Origin: Thermoanaerobaculia bacterium | GTDB lineage: Bacteria > Acidobacteriota > Thermoanaerobaculia > UBA5066 | Direction: 5' to 3' | DNA length: 64,000 nt | NCBI GenBank assembly: GCA_963719225.1 | Contig: CAVRAY010000001.1 | Coordinates: 3,136,001 to 3,200,000 of the forward strand | Shown: piece after piece, positions 6,863-36,619 of the stretch | Numbering within the stretch: the stretch's first letter is position 1 | How the letters are laid out: each line of letters starts with the position of its first letter | Notes under the pieces: model-generated | What the model was told of the DNA's origin: nothing | Databases searched by the model: none | What the model saw: only the letters and a program-made list of their open reading frames with translations | Translations under genes and position numbers: made by a program

Positions 6863-6866
6863 AGCC

Positions 6867-11252: not shown

Positions 11253-11271
11253 AGGTTCCCGAGAGCGTCCC

Positions 11272-12693: not shown

Positions 12694-12801
12694 ACCCGCT
12701 CCTCGTCCACCCGGGGGCGGGGAAATCCACCGCAACTTCCGTCCTCTTGACCCACGGCATATGATTCGCACTCTCGACGAAAGGGGTGAAAGGAAAAAGC
12801 C

Positions 12802-13287
12802 ATGGCACTCGTCGACATGTTCCTGAAGCTGGACGGCGTGGACGGCGAGAGCCCGGATCCCGAGCACAAGAGCGAAATCCAGATCGCCGGCTTTCGCCTG
12901 AGCGCGTTGAGCCCTCGCGACGCCTTCACGAACCAGGCCACCGGCAAGGTCCGGATGTCGCACTTGACGATCAAAGCGAAGATCGACAAGTCGACTCCGA
13001 AGCTCTTCACGAAGATCAAGGCAAACGAAAAGATCCCGACCGCGACCTTGTCGTGCCGCAAGGCGGGCAAGGAGCAGTTCGAGTACTTCAAGATCACGCT
13101 CACGGAGGTCCTCGTCGTGAAGGTCGAGGCGGGCGACCTCGGCGAGGGCGGCGGCGACGACGTGATTCCGACGTGCGAGTTCGACCTCGCATACGGACAG
13201 ATCGAGATGAAGGCGATGGAGCAGACGTCGCGTGGTCCGACGTCGGGGCCCGTGGTGTTCAACTTCAACCTGATGTCGAACGCGTGA
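12802..13287 (+). CDS. hcp: T6SS tube protein Hcp (divergent copy 1)
   Basis: MFLKLDGVDGES...HKSEIQI, IDKSTPKL, RKAGKEQFEYFKITLTEV; RBS GAAAGGA upstream. Confidence 0.92.
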   Translation: MALVDMFLKLDGVDGESPDPEHKSEIQIAGFRLSALSPRDAFTNQATGKVRMSHLTIKAKIDKSTPKLFTKIKANEKIPTATLSCRKAGKEQFEYFKITLTEVLVVKVEAGDLGEGGGDDVIPTCEFDLAYGQIEMKAMEQTSRGPTSGPVVFNFNLMSNA

Positions 13288-13490
13288 GAGATTCTGTGAC
13301 GTGCCTCCACGCGCAGCACGATCGTTGCGAATCCTTGATGATAGACGTCACGCGTCTGTCGGAGCGAGGTTGAATTTCGCCATGCGCGACCTATGTTTGC
13401 TACCGAGAACGAGCCGCGATCGGGACGTTGTCAACGGGATCACGAAAAAGAGCACGACATCCACCGCACCCGGATGAAAGGAGCAGCCAA

Positions 13491-13979
13491 ATGGCATTAG
13501 TCGACTATTTTCTGAAACTCAACGGAATCGACGGCGAGAGCAAGGACGAAAAACACAAGAACGAGATCGAGCTCGAATCCTGGTCGTGGGGCGAGGCCAA
13601 CACGAGCACCGGCCACTCGGGAGGCGGACACGGGGCCGGGAAGGTCAACGGCCAGGACTTTCACTTCGTGATGAAGGTCAACAAAGCCTCGCCGAAGCTG
13701 ATGCTCGCGTGCGCCGACGGGCACCACATCCCCGACGCCACTTTGGTGGCCCGCAAGGCGGGAAAGGGCCAGCACGACTTCCTGAAATACAAGTTCACCG
13801 ACGTCTTCGTCTCCAGCTTCCAGACGGGAGGCTCGGGACACGGCGACATCCTCCCGGTCGACCAGATCTCGATGGGCTACGCCAAGATGGAGGTGGAGTA
13901 CAAGGAGCAGAATCAGGACGGTTCTCTCGGCGGCTCGACCAAGGCGGGCTACAACTTCCAGACGAACAAGGCGCTCTGA
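13491..13979 (+). CDS. hcp: T6SS tube protein Hcp (canonical copy 2)
   Basis: YFLKLNGIDGESKDEKHKNEIELESWSWG, NKASPKLMLACADG, EYKEQNQDGS; RBS AAAGGAG. Confidence 0.96.
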   Translation: MALVDYFLKLNGIDGESKDEKHKNEIELESWSWGEANTSTGHSGGGHGAGKVNGQDFHFVMKVNKASPKLMLACADGHHIPDATLVARKAGKGQHDFLKYKFTDVFVSSFQTGGSGHGDILPVDQISMGYAKMEVEYKEQNQDGSLGGSTKAGYNFQTNKAL

Positions 13980-14010
13980 GCTTCCTCGAACCGCTCTCGC
14001 CCACATCCGC

Positions 14011-14047
14011 GAAGACCCTCGCCGTCCGGCGAGGGTCTTCTTCTTTT
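14011..14047 (+). terminator. Rho-independent terminator after hcp2
   Basis: 13-bp perfect stem GAAGACCCTCGCC-gtcc-GGCGAGGGTCTTC followed by TTCTTTT; lies between convergent hcp and tagJ. Confidence 0.88.
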
Positions 14048-14051
14048 GCGC

Positions 14052-14864
14052 TCAGCTGACGGCGGCGGGGGGCGACGGGAGGAACTCGACCTGCCGGGCC
14101 TCGAACAGCGCCACGTCGTCTTCGTCCGTCTGGAACGTCTTGAGCCCAGCGCCACGGGACAGGTCGTCCGACAGCGCGATCCAGGAGGTCATCCTCCCGA
14201 GCCGAAGCTGGTCGTCCGCATTCCGGCACGTCCCTTCGTAGAGGGCCGGCAGGTAAACGTCGCCGACCGTGCCGTCCAGGGCTTCCACCTTCGCGCGCGC
14301 CCAGACGAGGTCCCGGAGCTTCGACGGCGGGGTGACCTCCATGCGGCGGATCTGCTCGAACGGGAGCCACGCGTACTTGTCCTTGACGATGAGCTCCAGG
14401 ACGGGCCCGATCACGTCGTCCGAGTCGCGAAAATCGCCGAAAGGCCTGCCGTTCAGAGTGCCGGACAGCGCCGGGCGCTCCTCTTCGGCCCGGTCGAGGA
14501 GCTCCCGGGCCTCGGCGAAGCTCCCTTCGCGGATCCGGTTGATCGCCTCCAGGTGCCGGTCGACGTAGGGCGGCGGCTCGTTCAGGAAGTGGGGATGGAG
14601 GCCCTCCGAGAAGAGGCGCTGCCGCAGCCGCTCGGCCTGGATGTTCGACTGGTAGACGAGGACGGCGAGCGCCTCGTTCGGGCCCGCCTGCCCGAGGACC
14701 TCGATCTGCTTCTGCGCCCGATCCCATTCGCCGGCGAACGAGAGGAGCTCGAACAGGAAAATGCGCGCCGGGGCGTCCGCCGGGTTCGCGCGGACCTCGG
14801 CGGTGAGGGCCTGGATCGCCGCCTGGAGTTGACCGGCCTGATAGAGTTCGCGTGGTGTCGGCAT
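14052..14864 (-). CDS. tagJ: TagJ / ImpE (SciE) T6SS accessory protein
   Basis: LYQAGQLQAAI...VRANPADAPARIFLFELLSFAGEWDRAQKQ; RDSDDVIGPVLE; PSKLRDLVW; LRLGRMT. Confidence 0.92.
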   Translation of the reverse strand: MPTPRELYQAGQLQAAIQALTAEVRANPADAPARIFLFELLSFAGEWDRAQKQIEVLGQAGPNEALAVLVYQSNIQAERLRQRLFSEGLHPHFLNEPPPYVDRHLEAINRIREGSFAEARELLDRAEEERPALSGTLNGRPFGDFRDSDDVIGPVLELIVKDKYAWLPFEQIRRMEVTPPSKLRDLVWARAKVEALDGTVGDVYLPALYEGTCRNADDQLRLGRMTSWIALSDDLSRGAGLKTFQTDEDDVALFEARQVEFLPSPPAAVS

Positions 14865-14986
14865 GGTCTCTCCTCGCTTCTCGACGAGCTCTTGACCGCG
14901 GTCCGCGCCGTCAGTATTCTCCCCGCATTCTAACTGTTGGCCGCCGAATGGCATAAGCGTCTTTCTAACCGGAGGAAATCGTCGCG

Positions 14987-16098
14987 ATGCCGTCAGCTCC
15001 CGTTTTCAACCTGGACGCCCTGCTCGCGCCGATCCCGGGAGAAAACCCGAGCGGCGAGAACCTCCAGTACTCGGGGCTCCACGACGAGATTCGCGAAGCG
15101 CGCCGCGCCGACGACGACGTCCCGCAGGGCGACTGGGTTCACGAGCTGAAAGTCGCCGACTGGGAAAAAGTCGCCGAGCTCGCCGGCGAGAGTCTCGCCG
15201 GGAAGACGAAGGACCTCCAGATCGTGGCCTGGCTTTCGGAAGCCGCCGTGAGCATGAACGGATTCCCGGGCCTGAGAGATTCGCTGAAGCTCGCAAACGG
15301 GTTCCTCGTGAACTTCTGGGACACGCTGTATCCCGAGATCGACGAAGGGAACGACCTCGAAGCGCGCGCGAACGCCCTCGCGTGGATGGACCGCCAGGCC
15401 GCGGACGCGGCCCGGAAGATCGTGCTCACGAAGCGCTCCGGCACGAACTACAGCTTCTTCCAGTGGGAGGATGCGCTGCAGTACGACTTTCCGGCCGACA
15501 CCTCGAAGCTCTCGGGCGAGGCGCTCCAGCAGCTCGAGGAGAAGCGCGCACGCGCCCAGATGGAAGGAAAGGTCACCGGCGAGGAGATCCGGAAAGCCAA
15601 GAGCGAGACGCGACGCGCCTTCTACGAAGAGCTCTACGCGGACGTGGCCGACAGCACGGCGGCCCTGAAAGCGCTCGACAAGGAGATGGACGCCCGCTTT
15701 GCGCGCCAGACTCCGGGGCTCGGCAGCCTCGCGAAGGCTCTCGAGGCGATCCGGACCCTGCTCGAAAAGGTCGTCAAGGAAAAGAGGATCGAGGAGCCGG
15801 ACCCGTCCGACGCGGCCGAGGGAGCCGAGGGCGAAGCGTCGGGAGCCGCCGCCGGCGGGCCCGGCGGGGCCATTCGGGCCCGGGACCAGGCCCTCGCCCA
15901 GCTCGCGCAGGTCGCGGACTACTTCCGGAGGACCGAGCCGCACAGCCCGGTCTCGTATCTCGTCCAGCGCGCCATCACGTGGGGGCAGATGCCGCTGGAC
16001 GCCTGGCTTGGAGATGTGATCAAGGACGCAACGTTCTCGACGGTCTGCGCGAAACTCTCGGCCTCAAGGGCGGCGAGTCCGGCAGCACGGGAGCCTGA
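14987..16098 (+). CDS. tssA: TssA (ImpA N-terminal domain); frameshift near 16030
   Basis: LLAPIPGENPSGENL, KTKDLQIVAWL, FWDTLYPE, YFRRTEPHSPVSYLVQRAITWGQMPL; C-terminus VLDGLRETLGLK...* continues in another frame to TGA 16098. Confidence 0.9.
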
Positions 16099-16109
16099 GG
16101 GAGGGGACC

Positions 16110-16650
16110 ATGCCGAAGAAAGAGAGTATCCAGCAGAAACTCAAGAGGGTCCGGCCTCCCCGCGTTCAGATCACGTATGACGTGGAGATCGGCGGGGCCA
16201 TCGAGATGAAGGAGCTGCCGTTCGTCGTCGGAGTCCTCGGCGACTTCTCCGGCCAGCCCGCCGAGCAGCTCCCGAGGCTGAAGGACCGGAAGCTGGTCGA
16301 GATCGACCGCGACAACTTCGACCAGGTGCTCGCGGCGCAGGCGCCGCGCCTGGCCCTTCGCGTCGACAACAAGCTGTCCGACGACGGCAGCAAGATGAAC
16401 GTCGAGCTGAGGTTCAACAACATCGACGGATTTCGAGCCCGAGCAGGTAGTCCAGCAGGTCGAGCCGCTCCGCAAGCTCGTCGAGGCGCGCCAGAGGCTC
16501 CGTGACATCCTCTCCAAGACCGACGGCAACGACAAGCTGGAAGCCATGCTGCACGGATCGTCCTCAAGAACCCGAACGCGCAGAAGCAGCTCGGCAAGCA
16601 GCTCGGCGTCGTGACGGACGAGGAAGGCAAGAAGGAAGAGGACCCCATGA
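16110..16650 (+). CDS. tssB: Sheath small subunit TssB (VipA); frameshifts near 16430 and 16555
   Basis: [47 protein letters not shown]; [23 protein letters not shown] in a shifted frame. End approximate. Confidence 0.9.
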
Positions 16651-18153
16651 GTAAGAACCCCGAGAAAAAGGCCGAGTCGATCGTCCGAGAAGAGCAGGAG
16701 GCGGGACCTTCTCGACCAGATCCTCGAGAGGGGCGGCTGGCCCGCGACGAGGACCAGGTCGACCACGCCAAGGACATGATCGGCGAGTTCGTCCAGCAGG
16801 TCATGCAGGGACGAGGTCGTCGTGTCTCGAAGGACCCCGAGGCGATGATCAACGCGCGCATCGCGGCAGATCGACCGGCTGCTCTCGGCGCAGCTCAACG
16901 AGATCATGCACCACGCCGGACTTCCAGAAGCTCGAAGGCTCCTGGCGGGGCCTGCACTACCTCGTGCACGCAGACCGAGACCGGCACGATGCTCAAGATC
17001 CGGGTGCTGAACGTCTCCAAGAAGGACCTGCTCAAGGACCTCGAGCGGGCCGCCGAGTTCGACCAGACCGCGCTCTTCAAGAAGGTCTACGAGGAGGAGT
17101 ACGGCACGTTCGGCGGCGCGCCCGTTCGGCGCGCTGGTCGGCGACTACGAGTTCGGCAACCACCCGCAGGACATGGCGCTGCTCGAGAAGATCTCCAACG
17201 TCGCGGCCGCGGCGCACGCGCCGTTCATCTCCGCGGCCTCGCCCGAGCTGTTCGGCTGGGACAGCTTCACCGAGCTGGCCGAGGCCGCGCGACCTGGCCA
17301 AGATCTTCGAGACCGGACCGAGTACGCCAAGTGGCGGTCGTTCCGCGAGTCGGAGGACTCGCGCTACGTCGGCCTCATGCCTGCCGCACATCCTGATGCG
17401 GCTCCCTACGGCAAGGACACCGTCCCGGTCGAGGCGTTCAACTTCGAGGAGGACGTGGACGGCAAGCGACCACAAGAAGTACCTCTGGGGCAACGCCGCG
17501 TACGCCTTCGGGACGCGGCTGACCGAGGCGTTCGCGCAAGTACCACTGGTGCGCCGCGATCCGCGGCGTCGAGGGGGGCGGGCTGGTCCAGGGCCTGCCG
17601 GCGCACACGTTCCAGACCGACGAGGGCGACGTCGCGCTGAAGTGCCCGACCGAGATCGCGATCACCGACCGCCGCGAGAAGGAGCTCTCCGACCTCGGGT
17701 TCATCCCGCTGGTCCACTGCAAGAACACCGACTACGCGGCGTTCTTCGGCGCCCAGTCGGCGCCAGAAGGCGAAGATGTACGACACCGACTCCGCCAACG
17801 CCAACGCGCGGCTGTCGACGCAGCTCCCGTACATCTTCGCCGTCTCGCGGTTCGCCCACTACCTCAAGGCGATGATGCGCGACAAGATCGGCAGCTTCAT
17901 GTCGCCGCGCCGACTGCGAGCGGTTCCTGAACACGTGGATCTCGAACTACGTGACCCCGGACGACACCGCCTCGCCCGCAGGTCAAGGCGCAGTACCCGC
18001 TTCGCGAGGCGCGGATCGAGGTCGTGGAGTCGCCGGCAAGCCCGGCGTGCTACAGGGCGGTGGCGTTCCTGCGGCCGCACTTCCAGCTCGACGAGCTCCG
18101 GTCTCGCTGCGGCTGGTGGCCGAGCTGCCCAAGCCTCCGACGGAGGGGCGTAG
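16647..18153 (+). CDS. tssC: Sheath large subunit TssC (VipB); many single-base frameshifts
   Basis: Fragments across frames: [109 protein letters not shown]. Confidence 0.92.
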
Positions 18154-18251
18154 AGGGAAGCGCGGGAGGCGAAGGGTCGAGAGGACGCCCTCTGCGCTAA
18201 TCAGTCGGAGCCGGCCTGCGGCGACCCGGCCGCCCGGCCGCGCGAAGCGGC

Positions 18252-18747
18252 ATGCCGAGCGCATGTCCGATCGACAAGGAGATCCGGATCAACCTGTCGG
18301 TCCTCGACCGGCTGCTCGACTATCGGCCGGAGGTGAAGCCCGAGCCTCCCGCTTCGCGCGCAGAAGAGCCCTTCGCCAGGTGAAGCAGGCCGTCAAGCGG
18401 GACCTCGAATGGCTCCTCAACACGCGGCGGGTGCTCGAGGTGCCCGAACGAGCTGCCGCTCCTCGGCGACTCCATCGCTCGCGTACGGCCTTCCGGATTT
18501 CTCCAACGTCAGCGTGAAGAGCGCGGGGGACCAGGACGAGCTCTCGATGGCGCTCGAGACCGCGCTCAAGCGGTTCGAGCCGCGCCTCGAGGACGTCATG
18601 GTCACCGTCGCCAACGCGTCGGTGCTCGAACGCGCCTACCGGTTCAGGATCGAGGCGCGGCTGCGAGTCGATCCGGTTCCGGAGCCGATCTCCTTCGACA
18701 CGACCCTTCAGCTCGGGAGCGGCAACTTCGCGGTCAAGGGCGACTGA
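18252..18747 (+). CDS. tssE: Baseplate TssE (gp25-like); frameshifted
   Basis: SVLDRLLD, VKRDLEWLLNTR, YGLPDFS, ALKRFEPRL, FRIEARLRVDPVPEPISFDT. Start approximate. Confidence 0.88.
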
Positions 18748-20607
18748 TGCGCAGCGACCTCCTGGAGTATTACGAGCGCGAGCTCGAGCTTCCTCCGCCA
18801 GATGGGAGCCGAGTTCGCCGACAAGTACCCGAAAATCGCCTCGCGCCTGCAGCTCGAGCCGGACAAGTGCGAGGACCCGCACGTCGAGCGGCTCCTCGAG
18901 GCGTTCGCGTTCCTCGCGGCGCGCGTGCGCCTCAAGATCGACGACGAGTTCCCCGAGATCACGGAATCGCTCCTCGGAATCCTGTATCCGACGTTCCTCG
19001 CTCCCGTGCCCTCGATGTCCGTCGCCCAGTTCGTCCTCGATTCCGAGCAGGTGAGCTTGCAGACCGGACAGGTCATTCCGAAAGGCGCGACGCTCGCGTC
19101 CGCTCCCGTCGACGGGCATCCCATGCCGGTTCCGGACCGCGTATCCGGTCACCATCTGGCCGGTCGAAGTGCGCGCCGCTCGGTTCGAGCAGGCGCCCGC
19201 GGTCACGATCGAAGGTCGCGACGCGCGGACGATGCTTCGCCTCGACCTGCACATCCTGGGAGCGGCCGCGCTGTCCGAGCTCAAGCGAGAAGTCGGTCCA
19301 GGGCGTCGAGCACCCGCTTTCGAAGCTCCGCTTCTACCTCCAGGGCGAAGGGAAGGTCGTCCACTCGCTCTACGAGCGCTCTTCAACGACGCGCTGTCCG
19401 TCGAGCTCCGCCCCAATTCGTCGGCTGGAGACGCCGCGGCGATCAAGCTGGGGCCCGGAGGCGCTCCGGCCGGTCGGTTTCGGCGAGGACGAGACGCTCC
19501 TGCCGACGCCGGACCGCCTTTTCCGGGGTTACCGCGTCCTCCAGGAATACTTCTCCTTCCCGGAGAAGTTCCTTTTCGTGGACCTCGAGGGGCTCGAGCG
19601 GCGTCCAGGGAAGCGCGTTCCGGACACGCTCGACGTCAGGATCCTCCTGGGACGTCCGTTCGCCGCCGAGCGGAGCGTCTCGGCGCAGACCTTCCGCCTC
19701 CACGCGACGCCGATCGTCAATCTCTTCTCGCAGATGGCGGAGCCCATTCGGGTGAGCACCTGACGCACGAGTACCGCGTCATTCCGAACCTGGGCCGACC
19801 GGGCGCGCACGAGGTCTGGTCCGTCGACAGCGTGACGTCGACGGGCGAAGACGTCGAGACCGTGCGGACCTTCCATCCGTTCTTCGCCTTCCGCCATGAC
19901 GCCGAACGCTCCGGACAGCAGGCCTTCTGGCATGCGAGCCGGCGCCCGTCGGAGCGCAAGGACGACGAGGGGACCGAGGTCTTCCTCACGCTCGTCGACA
20001 TGAACTTCGATCCGACCGTGCCGGATACGGACACGCTCACCGTGCACGTGACCAGCTCGAACCGCGACCTCCCGGCGCGCCTCCCGTTCGGGAATCCCGA
20101 GGGGGACTTCCAGCTCGAGGGACCTGGCGTTTTCACCGCGATCCGAAGCCTCGTGAAGCCGACCCCGAGCCTCCGGCCGCCGCTCCGGCGCGGGGCGCAC
20201 TGGAGGCTCATCTCGCATCTCGCCCTGAACGTTCTGTCGATCGTCGAGCGGGAGGGCGAGAAGGGTCCCGAAGCGCTCCGGGAGATCCTGCAGGCTCTAC
20301 GACATCTCCGATTCGTCCGTCACGAGGCAGCAGATCGACGGGATCTCGAAGCTCTCGGCGCGCCGGGTCGTCCGTCCGCTCCGCGACATCCACCCGGGAT
20401 TCGTGCGGGGACTCGAGGTCTCGATCGACTTCGACGAGCAGAAGTTCGTCGGGTTCGGGCGTCTACCTGTTCGCGTCCGTGCTCGAGCGGTTCCTGTCGC
20501 TCTATGCCTCCGTGAACTCCTTCAGCCAGCTCGTGGCGTCGACGAAGCAGCGCGAGGGCGTCCTCAAGCGCTGGCCGCCCCGCACCGGCGACCAGATCAT
20601 CCTTTGA
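18747..20607 (+). CDS. tssF: Baseplate TssF; multiple frameshifts
   Basis: LLEYYEREL, EFADKYPKIASRL...CEDPHVERLLEAFAFLAAR, GYRVLQEYFSFPEKFLF, HWRLISHLALN, LERFLSLYASVNSFSQL, WPPRTGDQIIL*. Confidence 0.92.
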
Positions 20608-21596
20608 ACGAGCGGCTGCGCACCCGACCCGAGCGATTCGGGTTCTTCCAGGCCGTCCGGCTGCTGGCGCGGCTGTCGCCGTCGCGCGTCCCGGTCGGTT
20701 ACGACGGGCCGCCGGGGAACGAGACCGCGCGCTTCAGGACCCGTGCGACCCTGGAATTCCCTCCCAGCGAGATTCACGACCTGCGAGTCGATCCGGACGA
20801 TCCGGACCGCCCGCCCGAGGTCACGGTGGCGATCGGAGGGACGACGGGCCCGCTCGGCGTACTCCCCATCCCCTATACCGAGCTCCTCATCGAGCGGGTC
20901 CGCTACAAGGACTACGCGCTCTGGGAGTTCTTCGATCTCTTCAACCACCGCTTCCTGTCTCTCTTCCACCGAGCCTGGCGGAAATACCGCTTCCCGCTCG
21001 TTTACGAGAGCGGCGGCGACGATCCCTTCATCCAGGGCCTCTTCGCGCTGATCGGCCTCGGAACGGGGAGCCTGCAGGGGCGCCAGAGCGTCTCCGACGA
21101 CGCTCTCCTCCTGTACGCCGGCCTCATCGCCCAGCGCCCGCACTCGGCGAGCGCGATCGAGGGAATGCTCCGCGATTATTTCGGTGTCCCGGCCCGGACG
21201 CGGCAGTTCGTCGGACAATGGCTGGACCTCGAGCCGGAAGACGCGTCGAGGCTCGGCGCCAGGAACAGCCGTCTCGGCGTCGACCTCGTTTGCGGCGACC
21301 ACGTCTGGAACAACCAGTCCCGCTTCCGGATCCGTCTCGGCCCGCTCGGATTCGCGTCGTTCCGGGCCTTTTTGCCGCGCGGAGACGCCTGGAGGCCGCT
21401 GAACGACCTCGTCCGGTTCCTCGTCGGCGTCGAGTACGACTTCGACCTGCAGCTCGTCCTGAAGAAGGAGGAGATTCCCGAATGTCACCTCGAGTCCGAC
21501 GCCCCGGCCCCGCCGATGCTCGGCTGGACGACCTGGCTCAAGAGCGCCCCCGCGCCCGAGGATGCCTCGGACCTGATTCTCGAGTCCATGAATTAG
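20604..21596 (+). CDS. tssG: Baseplate TssG
   Basis: FGFFQAVRLL, GPLGVLPIPYTE, FFDLFNHRFLSLFHRAWRKYR, QFVGQW, LGWTTWL; TTG start overlaps the tssF stop. Confidence 0.93.
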   Translation: MNERLRTRPERFGFFQAVRLLARLSPSRVPVGYDGPPGNETARFRTRATLEFPPSEIHDLRVDPDDPDRPPEVTVAIGGTTGPLGVLPIPYTELLIERVRYKDYALWEFFDLFNHRFLSLFHRAWRKYRFPLVYESGGDDPFIQGLFALIGLGTGSLQGRQSVSDDALLLYAGLIAQRPHSASAIEGMLRDYFGVPARTRQFVGQWLDLEPEDASRLGARNSRLGVDLVCGDHVWNNQSRFRIRLGPLGFASFRAFLPRGDAWRPLNDLVRFLVGVEYDFDLQLVLKKEEIPECHLESDAPAPPMLGWTTWLKSAPAPEDASDLILESMN

Positions 21597-21638
21597 GATA
21601 AGAACCCGTCTCAAAGCGAGAAGAGGAAGGAAGCGACC

Positions 21639-24375
21639 ATGGGCGCGAATCTGAAATCCCTCATCGGCCGACTCAACGACACCTGCCGCAACGCACTGGA
21701 AGGCGCCGCCGGGCTTTGCCTGTCGCGGACGAACTACGACGTCGACGTGGAGCATCTGCTCGTCAAGCTGGGCGAAACGCCGGATACGGACTTCCACCGG
21801 ATCCTGCGCCGGTTCGAGATCGACGAGTCGCGGCTCGCGAAGGACCTCGTGCGGTCGCTCGACCGGCTCAAGACCGGGAACACGCGCACCCCGGCTCTCT
21901 CTCCGCGCCTCCCGAAGCTCATCGAGGAAGCCTGGCTCGTCGGTTCGATCGACTTCGGCGCCTCGAAGGTCCGGTCCGCGCACGTCCTCCTCGCGTTCCT
22001 CGAGAAGGACGAGTTCGCCCGCCTCGCGCGGGAGATCTCCAAGGAGTTCGCGGCGATCTCGGTCGAGGCGCTTCGCAAGGAGTTCGACAAGATCGTCTCG
22101 GGCTCGGTCGAGGATCGTGATGCGGCCTCGCTGAGCGAGGCGCCGTCCGGCGACGCGGCCGGCGGAGCGACGGGAGTCCCTGGCCGGACGAAGGCCCTGG
22201 ACCAGTACACCGTGGATCTCACGGCCCGCGCGAGGGCCGGTCACATCGATCCGATCCTCGGGAGGGACTCCGAGATCCGCCAGGTCATCGACATCCTCAC
22301 GCGCCGCCGCCAGAACAATCCCATCCTCACGGGAGAGGCCGGCGTCGGAAAGACGGCGGTCGTCGAGGGATTTGCCCTCCGGATCGCCGCAGGGGGACGT
22401 TCCCGGCCCGCTGAAGAACGTCGCCGTGAGGACCCTCGACCTCGGCCTCCTGCAGGCGGGAGCGGGAATCAAGGGAGAGTTCGAGAACCGCCTCAAGTCC
22501 GTGATCGAGGAGGTCAAGGCGTCGCCGCAGCCCATCGTCGTCTTCATCGACGAGGCGCACACGATGATCGGCGCGGGCGGACAGGCGGGACAGAACGACG
22601 CCGCGAACCTCCTGAAGCCCGCCCTCGCCCGCGGCGAGCTCAGGACGATCGCCGCGACGACCTGGGCCGAGTACAAGAAGTATTTCGAGAAGGACGCCGC
22701 TCTCGCCCGGCGCTTCCAGGTCGTCAAGGTGGAGGAGCCGACGGAGGAGTCCGCGATCATCATGATGCGGGGCCTCACGGAGCCCCTCGAGAACCATCAC
22801 AAGGTGCGCATCCTCGACGAGGCGGTCGAAGACGCGGTCCGCCTCTCGCACCGCTACATCTCGGGCCGGCAGCTCCCGGACAAGTCCGTCTCCGTGCTGG
22901 ATACGGCCTGCGCGCGTGTCGCGATCGGGCAGGCCGCGACACCTCCCGCGGTGGAGGACTCGCAGCGGCGGATCGACCACTGCGCGGCGGAGATCGGCGT
23001 CCTCGAGCGCGAGGCCGTCACGGGCGCCTCGCACGACAAGCGCCTCGCGGAGCTGAAGGAGCGGAAGGCCGCCGAAGAGGCGTCCCTCGCGAAGCTTCGG
23101 GCGCAGTGGGACGCCGAACGTGCCCTCGTCGAAAGGATCCGCGATCTCCGCGGCCAGCTCGAGGAGATCGCCTCGCCTTCGAAGAAGGGGAAGACCGCGG
23201 CGCCGCCCGCCGGCGCGAAAGCGCCGGCATCCGGAGCTCCGGCCGAGCCGGCGGCTCCCGCGGCACCCGTCCCTCCGCCCGATCCCGCCGCCCTTCGCGC
23301 CGAGCTCGAGAAGCTGAACGCGGAGCTCGACGCCATCCAGGGCGAGACGCCGCTCATGCAGGCGTGCGTGACGTCGCAGACGATCGCCGAGGTCATCTCG
23401 GGATGGACCGGGATCCCGGTCGGCAAGATGCTGACCGACGAGATCCACACGGTTCTCATGTTGAAATCGAAGCTCGAGCAGCGGGTCATCGGCCAGGCGC
23501 ACGGGCTCGAAGCGATCGCGAGCCGCATCCGGACCGCGCGCGCGAACCTGACCGACCCGCGCCGGCCGATCGGAGTCTTCCTCCTCGTCGGACCCAGCGG
23601 CGTGGGCAAGACGGAGACGGCGCTGACCCTGGCCGAGACGCTCTACGGCGGCGAGCGGAACCTGATCACGATCAACATGAGCGAGTACCAGGAAGCGCAC
23701 ACGGTCTCGTCGCTCAAGGGGTCGCCTCCGGGATACGTGGGATACGGCGAGGGAGGCGTCCTGACGGAGGCCGTGCGACGCCGTCCCTATTCGGTCGTCC
23801 TTCTCGACGAAGTCGAAAAGGCGCATCCCGACGTCATGGAGCTCTTCTATCAGGTCTTCGACAAGGGAATGCTCGAGGACGGGGAGGGCCGGGAGATCGA
23901 CTTCAAGAACACCGTCATCCTCCTGACGTCCAATGCCGCGACCGACACCATGATGAAGCTCTGCGCCGACCCCGAGACCGCGCCCGAGCCCGAGAAGCTC
24001 GTGGAGGCGATCAAGCCGGAGCTGAACAAGATCTTCAAGCCGGCCCTCCTCGGGCGCATGGTCATCGTGCCCTACTACCCGATCGGCGATGCGGTCATGC
24101 GCGAGATCATCAAGCTGCAGCTCGGGAGAATCGGGGCACGCCTTCTCGAGAACCACGGCGCGGCTTTCACCTACGACGACGCCGTCATCAAGGAGGTCTC
24201 GTCGCGCTGCAAGGAGGTCGAGAGCGGCGCCCGCAACGTGGACCACATCCTGACGCGGACGGTCCTCCCGGAAATGTCCGGCGAGTTCCTTTCGCGAATG
24301 GCGGAGGGGCGGATGATCTCGAAGGTGCACGTGACGGTCGGCGACGGGGGCGCCTTCCGCTACGAGTTCAGCTGA
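21639..24375 (+). CDS. tssH: ClpV / TssH AAA+ ATPase; one frameshift near 22390
   Basis: [26 protein letters not shown]; [18 protein letters not shown]; [21 protein letters not shown]; [11 protein letters not shown]; LLDEVEKAH. Confidence 0.95.
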
Positions 24376-24527
24376 TGCGAGTCGCGGACGGGCCTCGGTC
24401 GGACGCTCCCCTGCGGTATTCTTCGGCGTCGTCCGGAAGGAAACCACGGACGTGACTCGCGTTACAGCGCGAGGGGAACCCCAGCCCTACCTTTGTGACG
24501 CGTGCCGGGCGCGCAGAAGGGGACGCG

Positions 24528-25232
24528 ATGCACCATGACATCCTGAGAATGACCACCTCGACCGTCCTCGGATGGCCGCTCGGCGGACACGAGAGGATGT
24601 CGGCGGATGCCGCCGCCACGGCTCTCCTGCGGGCGGAGACCGGCGGCGTGCTCGGAGACGCGTCTCCCGAGCGTCGCGATCGGCTGCGCGAGGTGGTCCG
24701 GGCGATGTCCGGGTTCGTGCAGGTGCCCGACATGGACGGCGCCCTGACGGGAGGGCACTGGCGTGCCTGGGGACAGATGCAGCACTTCATGCGCGTCCCC
24801 GGAAGGACCGTGGCCGAGTCCTTCCGCCTCGCGAAGGATTCGCTGTGGGGCGCGGCCGACGCGGCGGTCTTCCAGTTCCGCAGGGACGATCTCGCGCGCG
24901 CCAAGTCGAGCCTGGGCCAGGCGCTTCATGCTCTCCAGGATTCGTTCTCGCCGGCCCACGTCAAGCGCGAGCCGGACGAACAGGGTCGGCTAGTCGTCAA
25001 GGATCTCTACGAGTACACCGCGCAGGATTCCAAGCAGCACGCAAAAGGCGACGAGACCTACAGGACCGGCGAAGGCGAACAGGGCCCCTATTCCGCCCTT
25101 GGAAAGGCCACCGTCCTCGCCTCGACGCTTCTTCTCGCCTACTTCATCCAGCGATGCGTGGGACGCGAATCCGACGCCGCCGGCCTCCGGCAGTCGCTGG
25201 ACGACACCTACCTGCGCGAGCAGGCCTCATGA
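24528..25232 (+). CDS. Putative Zn-dependent phospholipase C / P1-nuclease-fold protein, candidate T6SS effector
   Basis: W-x4-H near the N-terminus (WPLGGHERM), QHFMR, LGQALHALQDSFSPAH, later H (QHAKGD); between tssH and vgrG; RBS AGAAGGGG. Confidence 0.6.
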   Translation: MHHDILRMTTSTVLGWPLGGHERMSADAAATALLRAETGGVLGDASPERRDRLREVVRAMSGFVQVPDMDGALTGGHWRAWGQMQHFMRVPGRTVAESFRLAKDSLWGAADAAVFQFRRDDLARAKSSLGQALHALQDSFSPAHVKREPDEQGRLVVKDLYEYTAQDSKQHAKGDETYRTGEGEQGPYSALGKATVLASTLLLAYFIQRCVGRESDAAGLRQSLDDTYLREQAS

Positions 25233-25267
25233 GGATCGGCCGGTCATCGGCCTTCGAGGAGTGCTGA

Positions 25268-27512
25268 GTGGCCTACACGCAGGACAATCGCCGCCTCAAG
25301 ATCAAGACACCGCTGGGCCCCAACGATCTTCTCCTCAACGGCTTCGCGGGGCGCGAAGCGATCTCGCAGCTGTTTCACTACCAGCTGCGATGCGTGGGCG
25401 AGATCGCGACGAAGATCCCCTTCGAAAGCGTTCTCGGCGAACCGGTCACCGTGGAGGTCGCCCTCCCGGGAAACAAGAAGCGCTTCTTCAACGGCATCTG
25501 CGCGAGGATTTCGCAGGGAGCGCGGGATGCGACGTTCACGGGGTATCACCTCGAGATCGTCCCGAAGGCATGGCTCCTGACCCGGAAGACCCAGAGCCGG
25601 ATCTTTCAGCACCTCTCGATTCCGGACATCCTGAAGAAAGTGCTCACGGGTTTGCCCGTCACCTATGAGATCCAGGGGACGTTCGAGCCGCGCGACTACT
25701 GCGCCCAGTACCGCGAGTCGGACTTCGCGTTCGCGAGCCGCTTGATGGAAGAGGAAGGGATCTACTACTTCTTCAAGCACAGCGACGGTAGTCACCAGAT
25801 GGTGGTCGCGAACACGCCCGGAAGCCACTCCGACCTTCCTGTCAAGAGCTCCCTCATTTTCGAGTCCGTCGGCGGAGGGGCCCGAACCGAGGACCGCGTG
25901 AGCGCCTGGGAAAAGGTGCAGGAGCTGCGCGCCTCGAAGACAACGCTCTGGGACCACTGTTTCGAGCTCCCGCACAAGCACCTCGAGGCCGACAAGCCGA
26001 TCCAGGCATCCGTTGCCGCCGGCAAGTCCTCGCACAAGCTCGCCCTCTCGGCGAACTCGAAGCTCGAGCTCTACGACTGGCCCGGGGCCTACGCGCAACG
26101 CTTCGACGGCATCAACAAGGGAGGCGGCGAGCAGCCGGCGGAGCTCCAGAAGATCTTCACGGACAACAAACGAACCGTCGACTTGAGGATGCAGGCGGAG
26201 GCGGCCGCCAGCGTCCTCGTCAACGCGGCCAGCAACTGTCGCCAGGTCGTCTCGGGCCACAAGTTCACGCTCGAACGCCATTTCGAGGGGGACGGCCCCT
26301 GGGTCGTCTACCAGGTCGAACACGTGGCCTCCGAGTCCGCTGACCTGCGCTCCGGGGGAGGCGGGTTCAACTACCAGAACAGCTTCACGTGCTTCCCGGT
26401 CGCTCTGCCCTTCCGCCCGCCCCGCGTCACGCCGACCCCCGTCGTGAGGGGAACGCAGAGCGCGGTCGTCGTCGGGCCCAAGGGCGAGGAGATCTTCACG
26501 GACAAGTACGGACGGGTGAAGGTCCAGTTCCACTGGGACCGGGAAGGCAAGAACGACACCGACAGCTCGTGCTGGGTGCGCGTCGCGCAGCCGGTCGCGG
26601 GACGCCGGTGGGGATCCTCCTTCTGGCCGCGGATCGGCCAGGAGGTGATCGTCGACTTCCTCGAGGGAGACCCGGACCAGCCGATCATCCTCGGGAGCGT
26701 CTACAACGCCGACCAGATGCCGCCTTACCTCGGCGACGGCCTGGATAGCAAGCACAAGAACGACAACAAGTTGAGTGGGTTCAAGTCGAACACGACGATG
26801 GGCGGCGCCGGGTACAACGAGATGCGCATGGACGACACGAAGGGCAAGGAGCAGCTCTTCCTCCATGGCGAACGCAACATGGACGTCCGGGTGAAGAACG
26901 AGTCCATGGAGAGCGTCGGCAGCAACAAGCACCTGACAGTGGGCGGAGAGAAGGACGGGCAGACGTTTGGAAACTACAAGGTGCTCGTCCACAGGCACAT
27001 GGGCCTTCGCGTCAGGAAAACGTTGGAGCAGATCGTCGGCAGCACCATGTGGCTCACGGTCGGCACGGAGGGTGGGGATTCAGGCTCGAACATGGTTCTG
27101 GTCGTGAAGGGCAACCGCTACAAGCTCGTCGAGAATGAAGAACACGTTCACATCAAGACGGACCGGAAGGAAAAGGTCGACGGGGGACAGAGTCTGACGG
27201 TGGGCGGGGACCAGAACGAGAAAGTCCAGAACCATGCGCTCGAGGCCGTGCAGGAGATCCACCTGAAGGCCGGCACGAAAGTCGTGATCGAGGCGGGAGC
27301 GCAGCTCAGCCTCAAGGGCCCCGGAGGGTTCATCGACATCGGACCCGGCGGTGTCACGATCAACGGCACGATCGTCAAGATCAATTCCGGCGGCTCCGCC
27401 GGCTCTGGGGCTGGCGCGACACCCGGCGTCGCCCGACGACGCCGACGAGGCCAGGAAGCACGACCCGACTCCGGCAGACGATTCGAAGTCGGGCATGAAG
27501 TCATGTCCGTAA
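25268..27512 (+). CDS. vgrG: VgrG (TssI) spike protein; frameshift near 27420
   Basis: GREAISQLF, YCAQYRESDFAFASRLMEEEGIYYFF, EIFTDKYGRVKVQFHWDR, SSCWVRVAQ, PRIGQEVIVDFLEGDPDQP; the true C-terminus ...ADDSKSGMKSCP* ends at TAA 27512 in a shifted frame. Confidence 0.95.
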
Positions 27513-27524
27513 GGAGACACGACC

Positions 27525-28765
27525 ATGGCGGCCGAGAGAAGAAAAGGGCGGATAGGAGATGACGCCCGCTGCAAAGGTCACCAGCTTGACGGGTCACGGC
27601 ACACCCCTGAGTCCCGGCCCCGGCTGCCCCACCGTCCTGATCGGTTTCATGCCCGCCTGGCGTGCCCTGCCGGCGGCAATGGCGAGCGCAGTCCAGTCCG
27701 CCTGGAACGTGATGAACTCGTTCATGGTGAGGCCGCGGATGACGCCGGCCGAACGGGACGGCCAGCCTCGTCGGGATCTCCCAGTCGCTCTGTTCAGCAA
27801 GGGGCCAAGGCCGCCGGAGCCGGCGCGCCCGCTGCCGCGGGGACCGCGGGCAGCGCGGTGGCCGCGCTGAATACGGCGAACGTGGCGCTGACGGCGGTCT
27901 GGACGGCGGCCTCAGTCGTCCCGGGTGGCTCAGCCAGCCGCGAACATCGCCTACACCGAGGGGGTCAAGGCGGCGGCCGCGGCGGCAGCCAGCGCCGTCA
28001 TGGCGTCTATGGCGAGCCTCTCCGACATGCACATCTGCCCCATTCCCGTGCCGATCCCGCCGCACGGCCCGGGCTTCGTCACGAAGGGAAGCTCGACGGT
28101 CGTGATCGAGAACTGCCGCGGCACGCGCAGGGAGACCAGATCATCGAAGCCATGCGGCGGACCGGAACAAAATCGCGATGGGGGATCCGACGGTCATTAT
28201 CGGGGACTCCGGTAGCGGGGGCGAAGGGGGCGGCGGAGGCGGCGCAGGCGGAGGGGCGGCGCCGGCGCAGCTGGTGCCGGGGCCGGCACCGGCGCCGGTG
28301 CCGGCGCGGGTGCGGGCACGAAGCTGAACAAAGGACCATTCAAGACTGCGGACGAGGCGGCCAAAGCGGCGCTCAATGCCGCGAACCCTCAATCGATCAA
28401 GGACAACCTCGAGTATTCGGGTCTGATCTATCAGGGAAAGGACGGAGGGTTCTACTTCACGGGCCCGGCCAAGGGCTCCGATCAGGGCGCGAATCCGCAC
28501 AAGGATGCGCCTGCCCCGCCCGGTACGCACTGTGGTGGGCGACTACCACACTCACGGCGGACTACTCGACGCTGGACCCGAAAACGGGAGCAGCCGTACG
28601 AACGAATGACCCCTCGAAGGATCAGTTCAACAGCGACAACTTCTCGACGCAGGACAAGGCGGGACGCCGCGACGAAGCAGGGTTACCCGGAGCGGCTATC
28701 TCGGGACGCCGAGCGGAACGTTCCGAAAATTCGACCCTGCGACCGGAAGCGACACGGTGCTGTGA
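27525..28765 (+). CDS. PAAR protein fused to a C-terminal JAB-family (DUF4329 / Tox-JAB-2-like) toxin domain; several frameshifts
   Basis: PAAKVTSLTGHG...PTVLIGFMPAWR; DMHICPIPVPIPPHGPG...GSSTVVI; AMGDPTVIIG; Gly/Ala linker; FKTADEAAKAAL...NLEYSGLIY, VVGDYHTH, DNFSTQD, YLGTPSGTFRKFDP...VL*. Reconstructed across frames. Confidence 0.75.
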
Positions 28766-28818
28766 GCCTGCTTTCGGCGGCCTCGGCCGCCCGATGGATG
28801 ATGGGAGGATTGGCAATC

Positions 28819-29322: not shown

Positions 29323-29397
29323 GTGAGGGTCGTACTCCTTGGAGTGACGGGAACGCGAGTCCCGGCGCCCGGAACCCCGGAACGAGAACGCCGCCGG

Positions 29398-29910
29398 TCA
29401 CTCCGCGAGGTCGATGATGTCGGAGCGTTGCGCGATCACGCTCGGACCCGGGCAGCCCAGGTGACCCCGCTGGAACATCGAGTGGTAGCCCAGTCCGAGA
29501 CCGTTGCGCGTGCTGGCGAGCTGCAGCGGCATTCCCCAGTTGGAATTGAACCAGGCGAGCAGGCGGGCGTTGCTCCTGACCTGCTCCTTCGTCAGCTCCT
29601 GGCCGGGCAGGGCGATGTTCTCGACGCTCACCCAGTGCGCGTCGTCGTTCCTCGTCTCGTCGCCCCCGACGCCCCACGCGATGTCACTCAGGTCCACGAA
29701 CTGTGCGATGTCGCCGTTCTTCGCGACGCAGAAGTGCGCCGATGCGCCGGCGCCCGGCACGTTGAACGTCGCAAAAATCCCGCCGAGGTCCGGCAGGTTC
29801 CCCTTCACTCCGTCCGTGATGTGCACCGCGATTCCCCGGGGGATCAGCGCCATGCCCCCCTTGGTGAAGTTGTGCTGAATGGGCCACCACCTCGCGAACG
29901 GAAGACGCAT
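29398..29910 (-). CDS. N-acetylmuramoyl-L-alanine amidase (Amidase_2 family)
   Basis: IAVHITDG, ASAHFCVAKNGDIAQFV, AWGVG, VSVEN, LTKEQ, GYH, CPG; no signal peptide. Confidence 0.85.
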   Translation of the reverse strand: MRLPFARWWPIQHNFTKGGMALIPRGIAVHITDGVKGNLPDLGGIFATFNVPGAGASAHFCVAKNGDIAQFVDLSDIAWGVGGDETRNDDAHWVSVENIALPGQELTKEQVRSNARLLAWFNSNWGMPLQLASTRNGLGLGYHSMFQRGHLGCPGPSVIAQRSDIIDLAE

Positions 29911-29912
29911 CG

Positions 29913-31418
29913 TTACCCCCTGCCTCTTTCCCAGCGGCCGGCGAGGGCGCGCATGGGTTTCGCGATCGACTGGAGGCGCGCGACGCGCACGCTCTCGCTG
30001 CCCTTGAGCGACAGGACCGGGACGAGACCGGCCTCGAGCAGCTTCTCCGCGGCGCGCACCGTGAGGACGACCTCGGACGGCGGAACGACGCGCGTCTCGA
30101 GGCCGTCCTTGAAGACATGCGTGGGGAGACCCTGGATTTCCGCCGCCGTCTCGGGACGGAGGTCCCACCCGCCTTCCTCGAACGCGCCCAGGAGGACGAG
30201 CGCGCCGGCAACCGCGCCATTCCCCCAGACGAAGGCTTCGTGCTCGGGAGAGCCCGGAATTTCCTCGAACGGGAAGGAGTCGATGGGCTCGGTCTTCGCG
30301 CCGTACGGGCGCCGCAACATGAGGCGCGGCAGCGCGAGCGCGACCCAGGCCGCCTCGTCGAGACCGCGAAGCTCCTCCCAGATCATGGCGCCTTCCTCTT
30401 CCGGTTTCCGCCAGTCGGCGGGATCGGGCGTCGCGGCCAGGGACGCGCACCCGACGAAGTCCGGGCGCGCGCCCGCGAGGAACGGAGCTCCCGCGGCACG
30501 GGCGACCTTCGCGACGCGCGCGAGGAAAGCCGCATCGGCGAGCGTCGGGCCGAACTCGTAGAGGCCGAGGACTGCTCCCCAGGGCTCGGCGCCCGGCGTC
30601 TCGACGGTCTCGGTCACGAGTCGCCGGTAGAGTCCGGTTCCCGACAGGTTCTCGTGGCTCGTGAGGTCTTCGAGCAGGGCCTCACGCGCGACGTCGAGGA
30701 AGAAAATGCGAACGCTCTCGCCCCCGGCACGGCGCACGAGCAGGTCGAGCGAGCGCCACGCCGCCTCGACCTTCCGGAATCGCGGATCGCGGAGGATCGT
30801 GCGGAGCAGCCCGGAGCGCACCTCGTCCACGGCGTCCTTGAGCCGCGGGAGATCGGCGTCCTCCTCGGGAGCGAGATGGGGCCGGACGATCGCCTTGAGC
30901 TCGGCCTCGAACGCCGAATCGGCGGGCTTCTGCCGCCGCGAAGCGCCCGCGAGAAGCTCGTTCACGATGTCCTCTTCCCCGCCGGCTCTTTTCGGAGCGT
31001 CTGCCCCGCGCCGCTCGGGAGGAGGGCCAGCGAAGGCGCGCACCTCGTTCGCCGCCTCGGCGAACGACCGGGGATTCTCGAGCCGCTCGCGCACGTCGCG
31101 CCACCTCGCGAGCGCCTCGACGCGCTCGAGCAGGCGGTCGGGATGGAGATCGTCGAAGTCGCGCAGAGAGATCCTCGCGGCCGGCCCTTCTCCGAGGCGC
31201 ACGTCCATCGTCGCGTCGAGGCCGCCGAGCACGTCCTCGAGGTCGTCCCGGTCCACGGCGTGAGTCTTTCGAGTCGCGAGGGGACCGGAGCCGCTTCCGC
31301 CGAAATCGCCGAGGACGAGAAGCCGAAAGGGCGTTTCGGGATCGAGCGGCTCGGCCGACGTCTGGGTTTCGCTCCCCAGCCTCACGTCGACGTTGCCGGA
31401 CGGCGGGCGCTTGGACAT
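29913..31418 (-). CDS. Fused TssB-TssC-like sheath protein lacking the TssC C-terminal region
   Basis: TssB-like N-half (PFRLLVLGDFGG, VDRDDLEDVL, FDDLHPDRLLERVEAL); TssC-like C-half (ILRDPRFRKVEAAWRSL, GAEPWGAVLGLYEF, AGAPFLAGA, LPRLMLRRPYG, FVWGNGA); 501 aa, intact ORF. Confidence 0.88.
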   Translation of the reverse strand: MSKRPPSGNVDVRLGSETQTSAEPLDPETPFRLLVLGDFGGSGSGPLATRKTHAVDRDDLEDVLGGLDATMDVRLGEGPAARISLRDFDDLHPDRLLERVEALARWRDVRERLENPRSFAEAANEVRAFAGPPPERRGADAPKRAGGEEDIVNELLAGASRRQKPADSAFEAELKAIVRPHLAPEEDADLPRLKDAVDEVRSGLLRTILRDPRFRKVEAAWRSLDLLVRRAGGESVRIFFLDVAREALLEDLTSHENLSGTGLYRRLVTETVETPGAEPWGAVLGLYEFGPTLADAAFLARVAKVARAAGAPFLAGARPDFVGCASLAATPDPADWRKPEEEGAMIWEELRGLDEAAWVALALPRLMLRRPYGAKTEPIDSFPFEEIPGSPEHEAFVWGNGAVAGALVLLGAFEEGGWDLRPETAAEIQGLPTHVFKDGLETRVVPPSEVVLTVRAAEKLLEAGLVPVLSLKGSESVRVARLQSIAKPMRALAGRWERGRG

Positions 31419-31497
31419 CGCGGCCTCCTGAGATGCCGGCCAAGTCTAGCGCGGGAAAGAGCCCTCGAAGGCCGCCGTTCTATGATCGCGCCTCCTG

Positions 31498-33048
31498 ATG
31501 TCGACGTCGCGACGAGAGCCGACCGAGTACGACGCCGTCTCGTATCCCGGGTCGCCGTTTTCCCAGACCCATCCGGATCGCCTCGCGACGACCGCCGCTC
31601 TGTACGGGCTCGCGGCGGCTCCCCCCGAGCGCTGCCGGGTGCTGGAGCTCGGCTGCGGAGACGGCGGCAACCTGATCCCGATGGCCTACGTCCTTCCGGA
31701 AAGCACGTTCCTCGGCCTCGACGCGGCGGGGTCGGCGATCGCCCAGGGCATGGAGCAGGTCGCCGCTCTCGGTCTGACGAACGCGACTCTCCTTCATGCC
31801 GACCTTCTCGAGGCTTCGAATCTCGGCACGTTCGACTACGTCATCGCCCACGGCCTCTACTCGTGGGTGCCGCCTCCCGTGCAGGAGCGGATCTTCGCGA
31901 TCGCCTCCGAGGCGCTCGCCCCGAACGGCGTCGCGTACGTGAGCTACAACGCCCTTCCCGGATGCCACGTGAGGAACGCGATGCGCGAGATGATGCTGTG
32001 GCACGTGCGGGGGATCGAGGACCCCGCCGAGAGAATCTCCCAGGCGCGGGGGCTCATCCGGTTTCTCGGGGAAGCTGCGCCGAAGCGCCCGCTCTTTTCC
32101 GCGATCCTGGACGACACGCTCGAGCACCAGGAGAAGCAGCCGGACGCCGTGCTGTTCCACGACGATCTCGCCGACGCCAACGAGCCTCTCCTGTTCGTCG
32201 ATTTCATCGCGCGGGCCAGCCGCCACAAGCTCAAGTTCCTCTCGGAAGCCGACTATTCCGACATGGCCGTGTGGAACGCGGACAGCCCGGCCGGCAGGTT
32301 CCTGCTCGGGTTCGGGGGCGAGAACGTGGTCGTGCAGCAGCAGTACCGAGACTTCCTCATCTTCCGGCGCTTCCGCCAGACGCTCCTCTGCCGCGAAGAG
32401 GCCTCCACCACGACGGAGCCCGACCCCGAGATCCTCCGATCCCTCTGGGTGAGTTCGAGCACGAGACCGGAATCCGCGAATCCAGACGTGGCTTCGGAGG
32501 AGCGCGTGACGTTCAAGACCGAGAAGGAAGGGGACGTGTCGACGCCGCACCCCCTGTCGAAGGCGGCTTTTCTCGAGCTCGGACTGATCTGGCCGCGGTG
32601 GGTCCGCGTTTCCGACCTCCTCGCCACCGCCCGCGCGCGCTTGTCGGCGGCCGGCGGCCGTCCGGTCACGGCGGAGGACGAGGCGCGTCTCCTCCGCTTC
32701 CTCCTCGGCGCCTACGGCTCGAACGTGGCGCAGCTGAGGAGCAGGGCGTGCCCCTTCGTCACCGAGATTTCGGATCGCCCGCGGGCGAGCGCGCTGGCCC
32801 GCTTCCAGGCGCGCACGCGGACCTCCGTCACGAACCTCAAGCATCAGACCGTGCGGCTCGAAGATCCTCTCGTCCGGACTTTCCTCGAGCTCCTCGACGG
32901 GACGCGCGACCGCATGACGATCGCCAGGGAGATGGCGGCGGCCCTCCGGGCGAGAGAACCGGCGGCCGAGGCGCTCGCGGCGGACGTCGAGAAGGGAATC
33001 GCCCTCAACTTCGACCGCGTCACCCGGCTCGCGCTGATCGAAGGCTAG
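31498..33048 (+). CDS. Class I SAM methyltransferase with regulatory domain (rickettsial PKMT-like architecture)
   Basis: YDAVSYP...FSQTHP, RVLELGCGDGGNLIPMA, FDYVIAHGLYSWVP, GVAYVSYNALPG, HDDLADANEP, QQYRDFLIFRRFRQTLLCR, C-terminal LLDGTRD wHTH-like region. Confidence 0.88.
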   Translation: MSTSRREPTEYDAVSYPGSPFSQTHPDRLATTAALYGLAAAPPERCRVLELGCGDGGNLIPMAYVLPESTFLGLDAAGSAIAQGMEQVAALGLTNATLLHADLLEASNLGTFDYVIAHGLYSWVPPPVQERIFAIASEALAPNGVAYVSYNALPGCHVRNAMREMMLWHVRGIEDPAERISQARGLIRFLGEAAPKRPLFSAILDDTLEHQEKQPDAVLFHDDLADANEPLLFVDFIARASRHKLKFLSEADYSDMAVWNADSPAGRFLLGFGGENVVVQQQYRDFLIFRRFRQTLLCREEASTTTEPDPEILRSLWVSSSTRPESANPDVASEERVTFKTEKEGDVSTPHPLSKAAFLELGLIWPRWVRVSDLLATARARLSAAGGRPVTAEDEARLLRFLLGAYGSNVAQLRSRACPFVTEISDRPRASALARFQARTRTSVTNLKHQTVRLEDPLVRTFLELLDGTRDRMTIAREMAAALRAREPAAEALAADVEKGIALNFDRVTRLALIEG

Positions 33049-36603: not shown

Positions 36604-36619
36604 GTCTTCTCTTCCCGTG

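Follow-up and report, generated by a model that had tools for sequence, protein, structure and literature searches.

What could a protein contribute to a T6SS when it joins a TssB-like and a TssC-like part in one chain, ends where the handshake domain of TssC is expected to begin and is encoded at the far edge of a complete T6SS locus? This question is raised by the reverse-strand gene 29913..31418 of the window, by which the whole stretch of 64,000 nucleotides analyzed here from a Thermoanaerobaculia bacterium (Acidobacteriota) is meant. Sheath subunits are described as donating two linkers each to the neighbouring ring on the baseplate side, where Domain 1 or, as was proposed, TssE accepts them (PMC5813253), and deletion of the TssC C-terminus is reported to leave no tubules (PMC3597794). 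An earlier note on this DNA had taken the gene for an intact single-chain TssB-TssC protein lacking the C-terminal region of canonical TssC, and had suggested a cap or terminator, a baseplate-proximal ring or a ClpV decoy rather than an ordinary subunit.

The single-chain gene encodes 501 aa in an uninterrupted frame ending in RLQSIAKPMRALAGRWERGRG; a Shine-Dalgarno-like AGGAGG was seen in the sequence at 31424..31429 on the same strand, and a promoter scan found none. An N-terminal arm (residues 1-29, 31332..31418), which the monomer model places with low confidence (pLDDT <50 for residues 1-17), leads into a TssB-like part (residues 20-118, 31065..31361; PF05591, T6SS_VipA, E 2e-10). Aligned columns locate the alpha0 helix, DIVNELLAG, at residues 149-159 (30942..30974; helix 151-159 in the model), and the outer/middle domain of TssC follows at residues 196-484 (29967..30833; PF05943, VipB, E 3.5e-59), with altered surface motifs and a 3-residue loop deletion in common with the roseobacter protein TssCL. 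The family-specific C-terminal motif R-x-x-R-L-Q-S-I-A-x-P-x-x-x-L-A-G-R-W (29931..29987) occupies the expected start of the handshake domain; all these features lie on the reverse strand. Open frame and Pfam matches confirm the intact ORF, TssB-like and then TssC-like, of the earlier note. The protein scores under the cut-off of both equivalogs, with 35.4 bits against 97.25 bits for TIGR03358 (TssB) and 192.5 bits against 271.5 bits for TIGR03355 (TssC), and as a TssB it is neither a separate gene, being fused, nor in possession of a full linker strand, of which half of the pattern is present. The AlphaFold2 monomer model (80-row alignment) reached a mean pLDDT of 89; the predicted structure found its closest Foldseek matches in T6SS sheath chains, and the comparison (VIA) of the model with 5n8n_B gave Z 33.7 and rmsd 2.5 A for 315 residues (chain range 63-401).

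The designation ‘stand-alone’ holds for the architecture of the gene and less so for its position: a complete T6SS locus has it at the far end, some 12 kb away from where tssC stops. On the forward strand this locus comprises a short tssA (14987-16180), canonical tssB-tssC with handshake domain (16110..18153, frameshifted, with alpha0 LLDQIL in a shifted frame), clpV (tssH, 21639..24375, one frameshift), which encodes an N-domain of the aliphatic-groove type (NLKSLIGRL), and tssK, tssL, tssM, tagF, two hcp, tssE, tssF, tssG and vgrG within 4744..27562. The two hcp are divergent and stand in tandem (12802-13979), with tagJ on the opposite strand (14052-14954). Also noted in the window (35085-37129, 44230-48013, 1140-4328) were an ECF sigma factor accompanied by a Ser/Thr kinase-TPR pair, a further two kinases and, upstream of tssK, an FHA-domain ORF. 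Single-base frameshifts are dense at 16100-22400 (tssB, tssC, tssE, tssF, clpV) and at 27300-29400 after vgrG. They are likely read errors in a poorly polished long-read patch: 12 of the 13 other tssC-bearing genomes of the genus yield an unbroken tssC match, and the contigs of relatives, which are other strains, are without the single extra bases at 10 of 12 indel sites displayed.

Next to the fused gene, and divergent from it, lies a recurring neighbour, a PKMT-like SAM methyltransferase (31498..33048, forward strand; PF10119, PF21782). It adjoins the gene in this divergent arrangement in 11 of 11 genus loci carrying the gene, with tandem copies in two (L166, L168), and occurs near it in 17 of 84 other loci (L045 and L052 among them), where it mostly has the same direction and stands upstream of tssB; a protein methylation linked to the T6SS is possible. 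On the other side an Amidase_2 gene (29398..29910, reverse strand) is not a conserved neighbour, no homologue having been found in the other loci compared.

Since the canonical tssB, tssC, tssE, tssF and clpV of the window are frameshifted, the truncation of the fused protein had to be checked. Pfam detects the gp25-like handshake domain PF18945 in canonical TssC (L001) and not in the 501-aa protein. An HMM built from 17 canonical TssC C-termini matched none of 115 fused ORFs, and 73 of 73 canonical ones, a class that is defined by that match. Beyond the last shared position canonical TssC continues for 119-133 aa, the window protein for 4 aa. Domain 1 and the C-terminal linker are absent throughout the family. 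Pfam, HMM and structure model agree with the loss of the C-terminal region as first described. Tails of 83-116 aa in the roseobacter and Eleftheria homologues were considered as handshake domains and rejected, being acidic and of low complexity. The amidase ATG follows 2 nt after the stop (29910-29398), and the next ORF is therefore not a frameshifted TssC tail. Moreover, G494, R495 and W496 each occur in at least 90% of 80 aligned homologues, and a LAGRW-like motif forms the end in 132 of the 150 best cluster representatives (50% identity), nearly all of which span the profile and then stop. Frameshift or assembly artefact as the cause of the truncation is ruled out by this conserved end, the amidase start and the intact gene in 13 of 13 carriers of the genus. 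Relaxed selection, which the earlier note had named as typical of a remnant, was not found either, Nei-Gojobori dN/dS being 0.13-0.19 in 13 of 14 pairs and saturated in the remaining one. A decaying remnant or artefact, for which the frameshifted canonical genes of the same assembly might speak, thus has a negligible probability in view of the same end in hundreds of homologues, the low dN/dS and the intact genus copies. Additional short stretches with resemblance to the gene lie close to an intact copy or on a contig of small size (L166:7177-7451 and G555:C366:1-189).

A search over lengths of 275-877, in which 7,993 candidates were scored, yielded 463 homologues at E<=1e-20. The family comprises at least about 150 clusters at 50% identity, and members are annotated as plain TssC or ImpC. 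Among 301 genomes of Acidobacteriota, for each of which 5 candidates were scored, canonical tssC was present in 34 and the fused gene in 14, all within those 34 and 9 of them from one family; at least 20 of the 34 tssC-bearing genomes have no copy under the same scoring, and the gene is hence dispensable. The phylum of a Geobacterales record (251 genomes) contributed three carriers, each with tssC. The 29 genomes of the window's genus include 13 carriers, 12 of them with tssC, the exception being a genome 56% complete, besides two with tssC only, in both of which the contig stops within about 8 kb past vgrG, and 14 with neither gene. The phyletic profile that the earlier note had proposed as a check consequently places canonical tssBC alongside the gene in 14/14, 3/3 and 12/13 carrier genomes. 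In 84 loci with uneven flanks a T6SS gene lay within the covered DNA in 39, and in 27 the fused gene preceded tssB, upstream of it by no more than 10 kb. In several genomes of one family it adjoins mnmG/gidA, apart from the T6SS cluster; in G262 the copy is intact and TssC is found elsewhere in the genome. Plasmid records add Leisingera, Ruegeria, Phaeobacter, Qingshengfaniella and Eleftheria as hosts.

Which parts of a sheath subunit the family has given up was traced in 148 representatives compared with 71 canonical TssC, with the positions of VipB K223 and D333 taken from the 5mxn alignment, where an offset of 16 gives Lys at 223 and Asp at 333. The K223 equivalent is Lys in a single representative compared with 62 of 71 canonical TssC and is Ile346 in the window protein; in V. 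cholerae, K223A stops sheath assembly (PMC5797969). Further positions that are invariant or nearly so in TssC are lost as well: the Y268 column, i.e. the Tyr of YEEEYG (0/148 versus 71/71), the second Arg of TDRRE (Arg or Lys in 2/148 versus 70/71), its Glu (0/148 versus 69/71) and the first Phe of AAFF (6/148 versus 70/71). A family-wide loss of D333 was rejected: the equivalent is acidic in 119 of 148 representatives, although Val454 in the window protein, and part of the contact residues is accordingly kept. A loop of 12 residues in 136 of the 148 and in three TssCL modules, compared with 15 residues in 71/71 canonical TssC, is a derived mark shared by the family and the TssCL modules. The arm retains part of the TssB linker strand: counted from the PF proline, position -16 is hydrophobic in 73%, -18 in 76% and -14 in 24% of 173 members, versus 100% of 74 TssB at each position; the window protein keeps two of these hydrophobic positions, V12 and L14. 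Compared with canonical TssB/TssC (VipA/VipB, HsiB1/HsiC1; PDB 5N8N, 3J9G, 5MXN, 5URW), it therefore resembles them in the outer/middle domain fold, alpha0 and a partial N-terminal linker, but differs in being one chain, in ending before Domain 1, tube-contact helices and C-terminal linker, and in many replaced invariant residues. That it is not an ordinary subunit, as had been suggested, is upheld by the missing handshake domain together with the loss of several invariant TssC motifs.

Fusions of this kind are already in print. Lossi et al. (2013; PMC3597794) mention DUF770-DUF877 fusions, likewise with TssB and TssC domains in one chain, with a 622-aa example that the available part of the paper cites only in support of evolutionary fusion and fission. 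Suria et al. (2022; PMC9515649) described TssCL of roseobacters as containing one VipB and two VipA domains, and in the accessible portion of that paper it is reported only from Alphaproteobacteria, without functional tests and without discussion of a missing handshake domain. In our analysis the roseobacter TssCL ORFs begin with a genuine TssB, which a long acidic linker containing 7-16 LDDLL-like motifs joins to the module, and close with an acidic tail; the TssC C-terminus HMM found no handshake domain in them. Several are annotated with truncated starts (L035:17097-21737, L037:17985-21650, L164:13553-17713), the full ORFs starting with genuine TssB. Their tail ends in a conserved amphipathic motif that also occurs in the stand-alone protein of Eleftheria, whose T6SS (L036:7198-9434, 35199-37298) has four hcp in tandem and a RebB R-body cluster nearby.

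In a careful tree of 38 rows, which left out class II (see below), L015 and L017 and sampled either group with fewer rows, a split at 100/100 sets canonical TssC apart from the window protein, the other stand-alone copies and the modules of TssCL; a quick tree of 85 rows also contained this split. The window protein was sister to Eleftheria plus TssCL at 94/83, a value below the star of the tool. With TssCL it shares a short divergent VipA fused to one VipB PF05943 domain and the retention of separate intact tssB and tssC in the genome. Unlike TssCL, it has no N-terminal genuine TssB (near-identical to the TssB of the cluster in TssCL), no long acidic linker and no acidic tail, measures 501 aa versus 1,221-1,684 aa, and belongs to a family found also in Acidobacteriota, Desulfobacterota and one betaproteobacterium. 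Forming one clade with the C-terminal module of TssCL, the window protein is a stand-alone variant of that module, which falls outside the definition of TssCL only for want of the extra TssB and linker. A literature search, with most subscription journals outside its reach, brought up neither a functional study of the stand-alone form without handshake domain nor a description of it; the fusion itself is known from TssCL and the remark of Lossi et al. (2013).

A second group of fused TssB-TssC paralogues, termed class II here, was met in seven loci (L148-L153 and L156). Like the window protein these are single-chain sheath paralogues beside a canonical T6SS, but they carry a tail of about 100 aa, and in six of the seven the chain starts at the PF motif and an arm is missing, whereas the window protein has the arm and no handshake-like tail. 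They form a separate clade in the 85-row quick tree, and in 4 of the 4 cases present in the tree their cognate TssC falls into the other main TssC clade. The model of one class II protein (mean pLDDT 71, 6-row alignment) aligns through the handshake domain, to VipB residue 477; this domain is supported by the structure model only, hhalign having given no significant match between the tails and the handshake profile (probability 0.2). Two further loci, L154 and L157, also grouped with armless fused paralogues, and the copy in G249 is class II.

The specificity of ClpV is described as determined by TssC's N-terminal helix (PMC5048182; PMC4239648), a single helix binding only weakly (26-39 uM) and requiring avidity (PMC5048182); in P. 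aeruginosa H1, binding of ClpV1 is reported not to require the TssC N-terminus (PMC4239648). Among 216 family members 120 have an alpha0 of the LLDxII-like type, 69 other amphipathic patterns and 20 none, while 7 offered no anchor. Wherever the module could be compared with its cognate TssC, the two have the same type (13 of 13 pairs), eight pairs being LLDx-type (L001, L044, L045, L087, L112, G500, G510, G262) and five of the alternative FxxLL/LxxLL-type (L035, L036, L037, L164, G089). This agreement amounts to two changes on the tree, one of them on a long, unstably placed branch, and is no more than suggestive. The ClpV N-termini seen follow the same two-way split. In the window's genus alpha0 is degenerate, DDIVxELLAGA versus LLDQIL of the cognate TssC; the helix of the window protein keeps its hydrophobic register with the Asp replaced and would, by alignment, be of the ClpV-binding type. 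TagJ, described in the available text of PMC4239648 only alongside charged-groove ClpV, accompanies aliphatic-groove ClpV and an LLDQI-type TssC in the window, a pairing equally present in L001-type loci.

Taken together, a protein with the outer fold of TssB/TssC and no handshake domain has been kept under purifying selection in company with canonical T6SSs. A part in regulating or recycling the canonical sheath encoded close by is likely, and of the roles first suggested a ClpV-related one and that of an end cap would fit the anatomy. We tentatively propose, somewhat short of regarding it as probable, that it acts as a sheath-docking ClpV adaptor which stops growth where it is bound. Judging from known structures, it would neither accept the linkers of the next ring nor grip Hcp. 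Its N-terminal arm may bind the free handshake sheet that an assembled sheath exposes at its distal end; in the roseobacter TssCL the genuine TssB on its long acidic linker would provide the tether. Once bound, the protein would halt growth at this site and offer alpha0 as a handle, by which ClpV might dismantle or limit sheaths in systems without TagA. The weak affinity of the single helix favours such tethering, and the tether of TssCL is a real TssB. Also in favour of the proposal are the lost invariant TssC positions, the match of alpha0 with the cognate TssC, the co-occurrence with canonical tssBC and a negative result for VasL/TagA in 5 of 5 carriers. Several facts stand against the proposal: only half of the TssB strand pattern survives in the arm, a single strand anchors weakly, and the spacing differs in TssCL; alpha0 is degenerate in the window's genus, and the H1 TssC N-terminus is dispensable for ClpV1 binding; the gene is dispensable, with at least 20 of 34 tssC genomes lacking a copy, and the D333 equivalent is mostly acidic.

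A freely diffusing decoy or buffer would be a stable monomer with alpha0 always exposed, titrating ClpV without docking to the sheath and thereby setting the rate of sheath recycling or protecting free TssBC. We hold this to be unlikely: it would account for the co-variation of alpha0, the lost invariant TssC surface motifs and the frequent placement of the gene apart from the cluster (mnmG/gidA) or, in the window's genus, on the opposite strand, but single-helix affinity is weak and dependent on avidity (26-39 uM; PMC5048182), neither the whole fold nor the conserved arm would be needed, and TssCL links the module to real TssB. Distinctly unlikely is an assembly chaperone or placeholder that occupies TssE, TssA Nt1 or the handshake domain of new TssC until the real subunits come. 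TssE was proposed as acceptor of the same linkers (PMC5813253), TssA Nt1 is reported to bind sheath protomers (PMC11106082) and in 27 of 84 loci the gene is found upstream of tssB at a distance of at most 10 kb; however, the match of alpha0 to the ClpV/TssC class is not explained by this role itself, and many T6SSs of the same clade do without a copy.

The sheath stopper TagA/TsmA, which also interacts with ClpV, VipA and VipB (PMC6745524), shares with the window protein a proposed function in stopping or holding the distal end, but it is unrelated in sequence and fold, with ImpA_N, transmembrane and VasL parts where the window protein has VipA and VipB only. Carriers of the fused gene gave no VasL/TagA match in 5 of 5 genomes, the survey covering carriers only. 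Together with the terminator geometry of an arm present and an acceptor domain absent, this could point to a protein that only caps the sheath or limits its length by closing the distal ring, ClpV doing no more than removing it; yet a six-membered ring should keep the within-strand contact, whose K223 equivalent is lost, and the C-terminal linker strand is missing, so that we consider such a cap quite improbable. An ordinary or minor co-polymerising subunit, or a first ring at the baseplate, agrees with the TssB/TssC fold and the mostly acidic D333 equivalent and is nevertheless highly improbable, as there is no handshake domain and C-terminal truncation abolishes tubules (PMC3597794). The baseplate-proximal ring among the roles first suggested has in addition to be given up on the geometry described in PMC5813253, by which a first ring must accept linkers and a protein without Domain 1 cannot carry further rings.

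For the family these results mean, first of all, that annotation as plain TssC or ImpC leaves a large group hidden in gene counts. The range of TssCL is extended well past the Alphaproteobacteria, and the handshake-less module emerges as the conserved unit. Its cultured hosts (Leisingera, Ruegeria, Phaeobacter, Eleftheria) make the question testable, and a natural non-polymerising protomer would serve as a reagent for structures of ClpV with its substrate. The family touches on the control of sheath length and recycling in T6SSs without TagA, which the available text of PMC6745524 associates with H1-like systems. It is a doubtful though conceivable generalization that TagA-less T6SSs devote a sheath paralogue to terminating the chain, which caps the sheath distally and loads ClpV at that place. 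If true, this family and class II, which has the acceptor and no arm, would each be specialised for a sheath end, in one T6SS lineage apiece, and TssCL would be the form that TssB tethers to the sheath and that carries a series of ClpV-binding helices.
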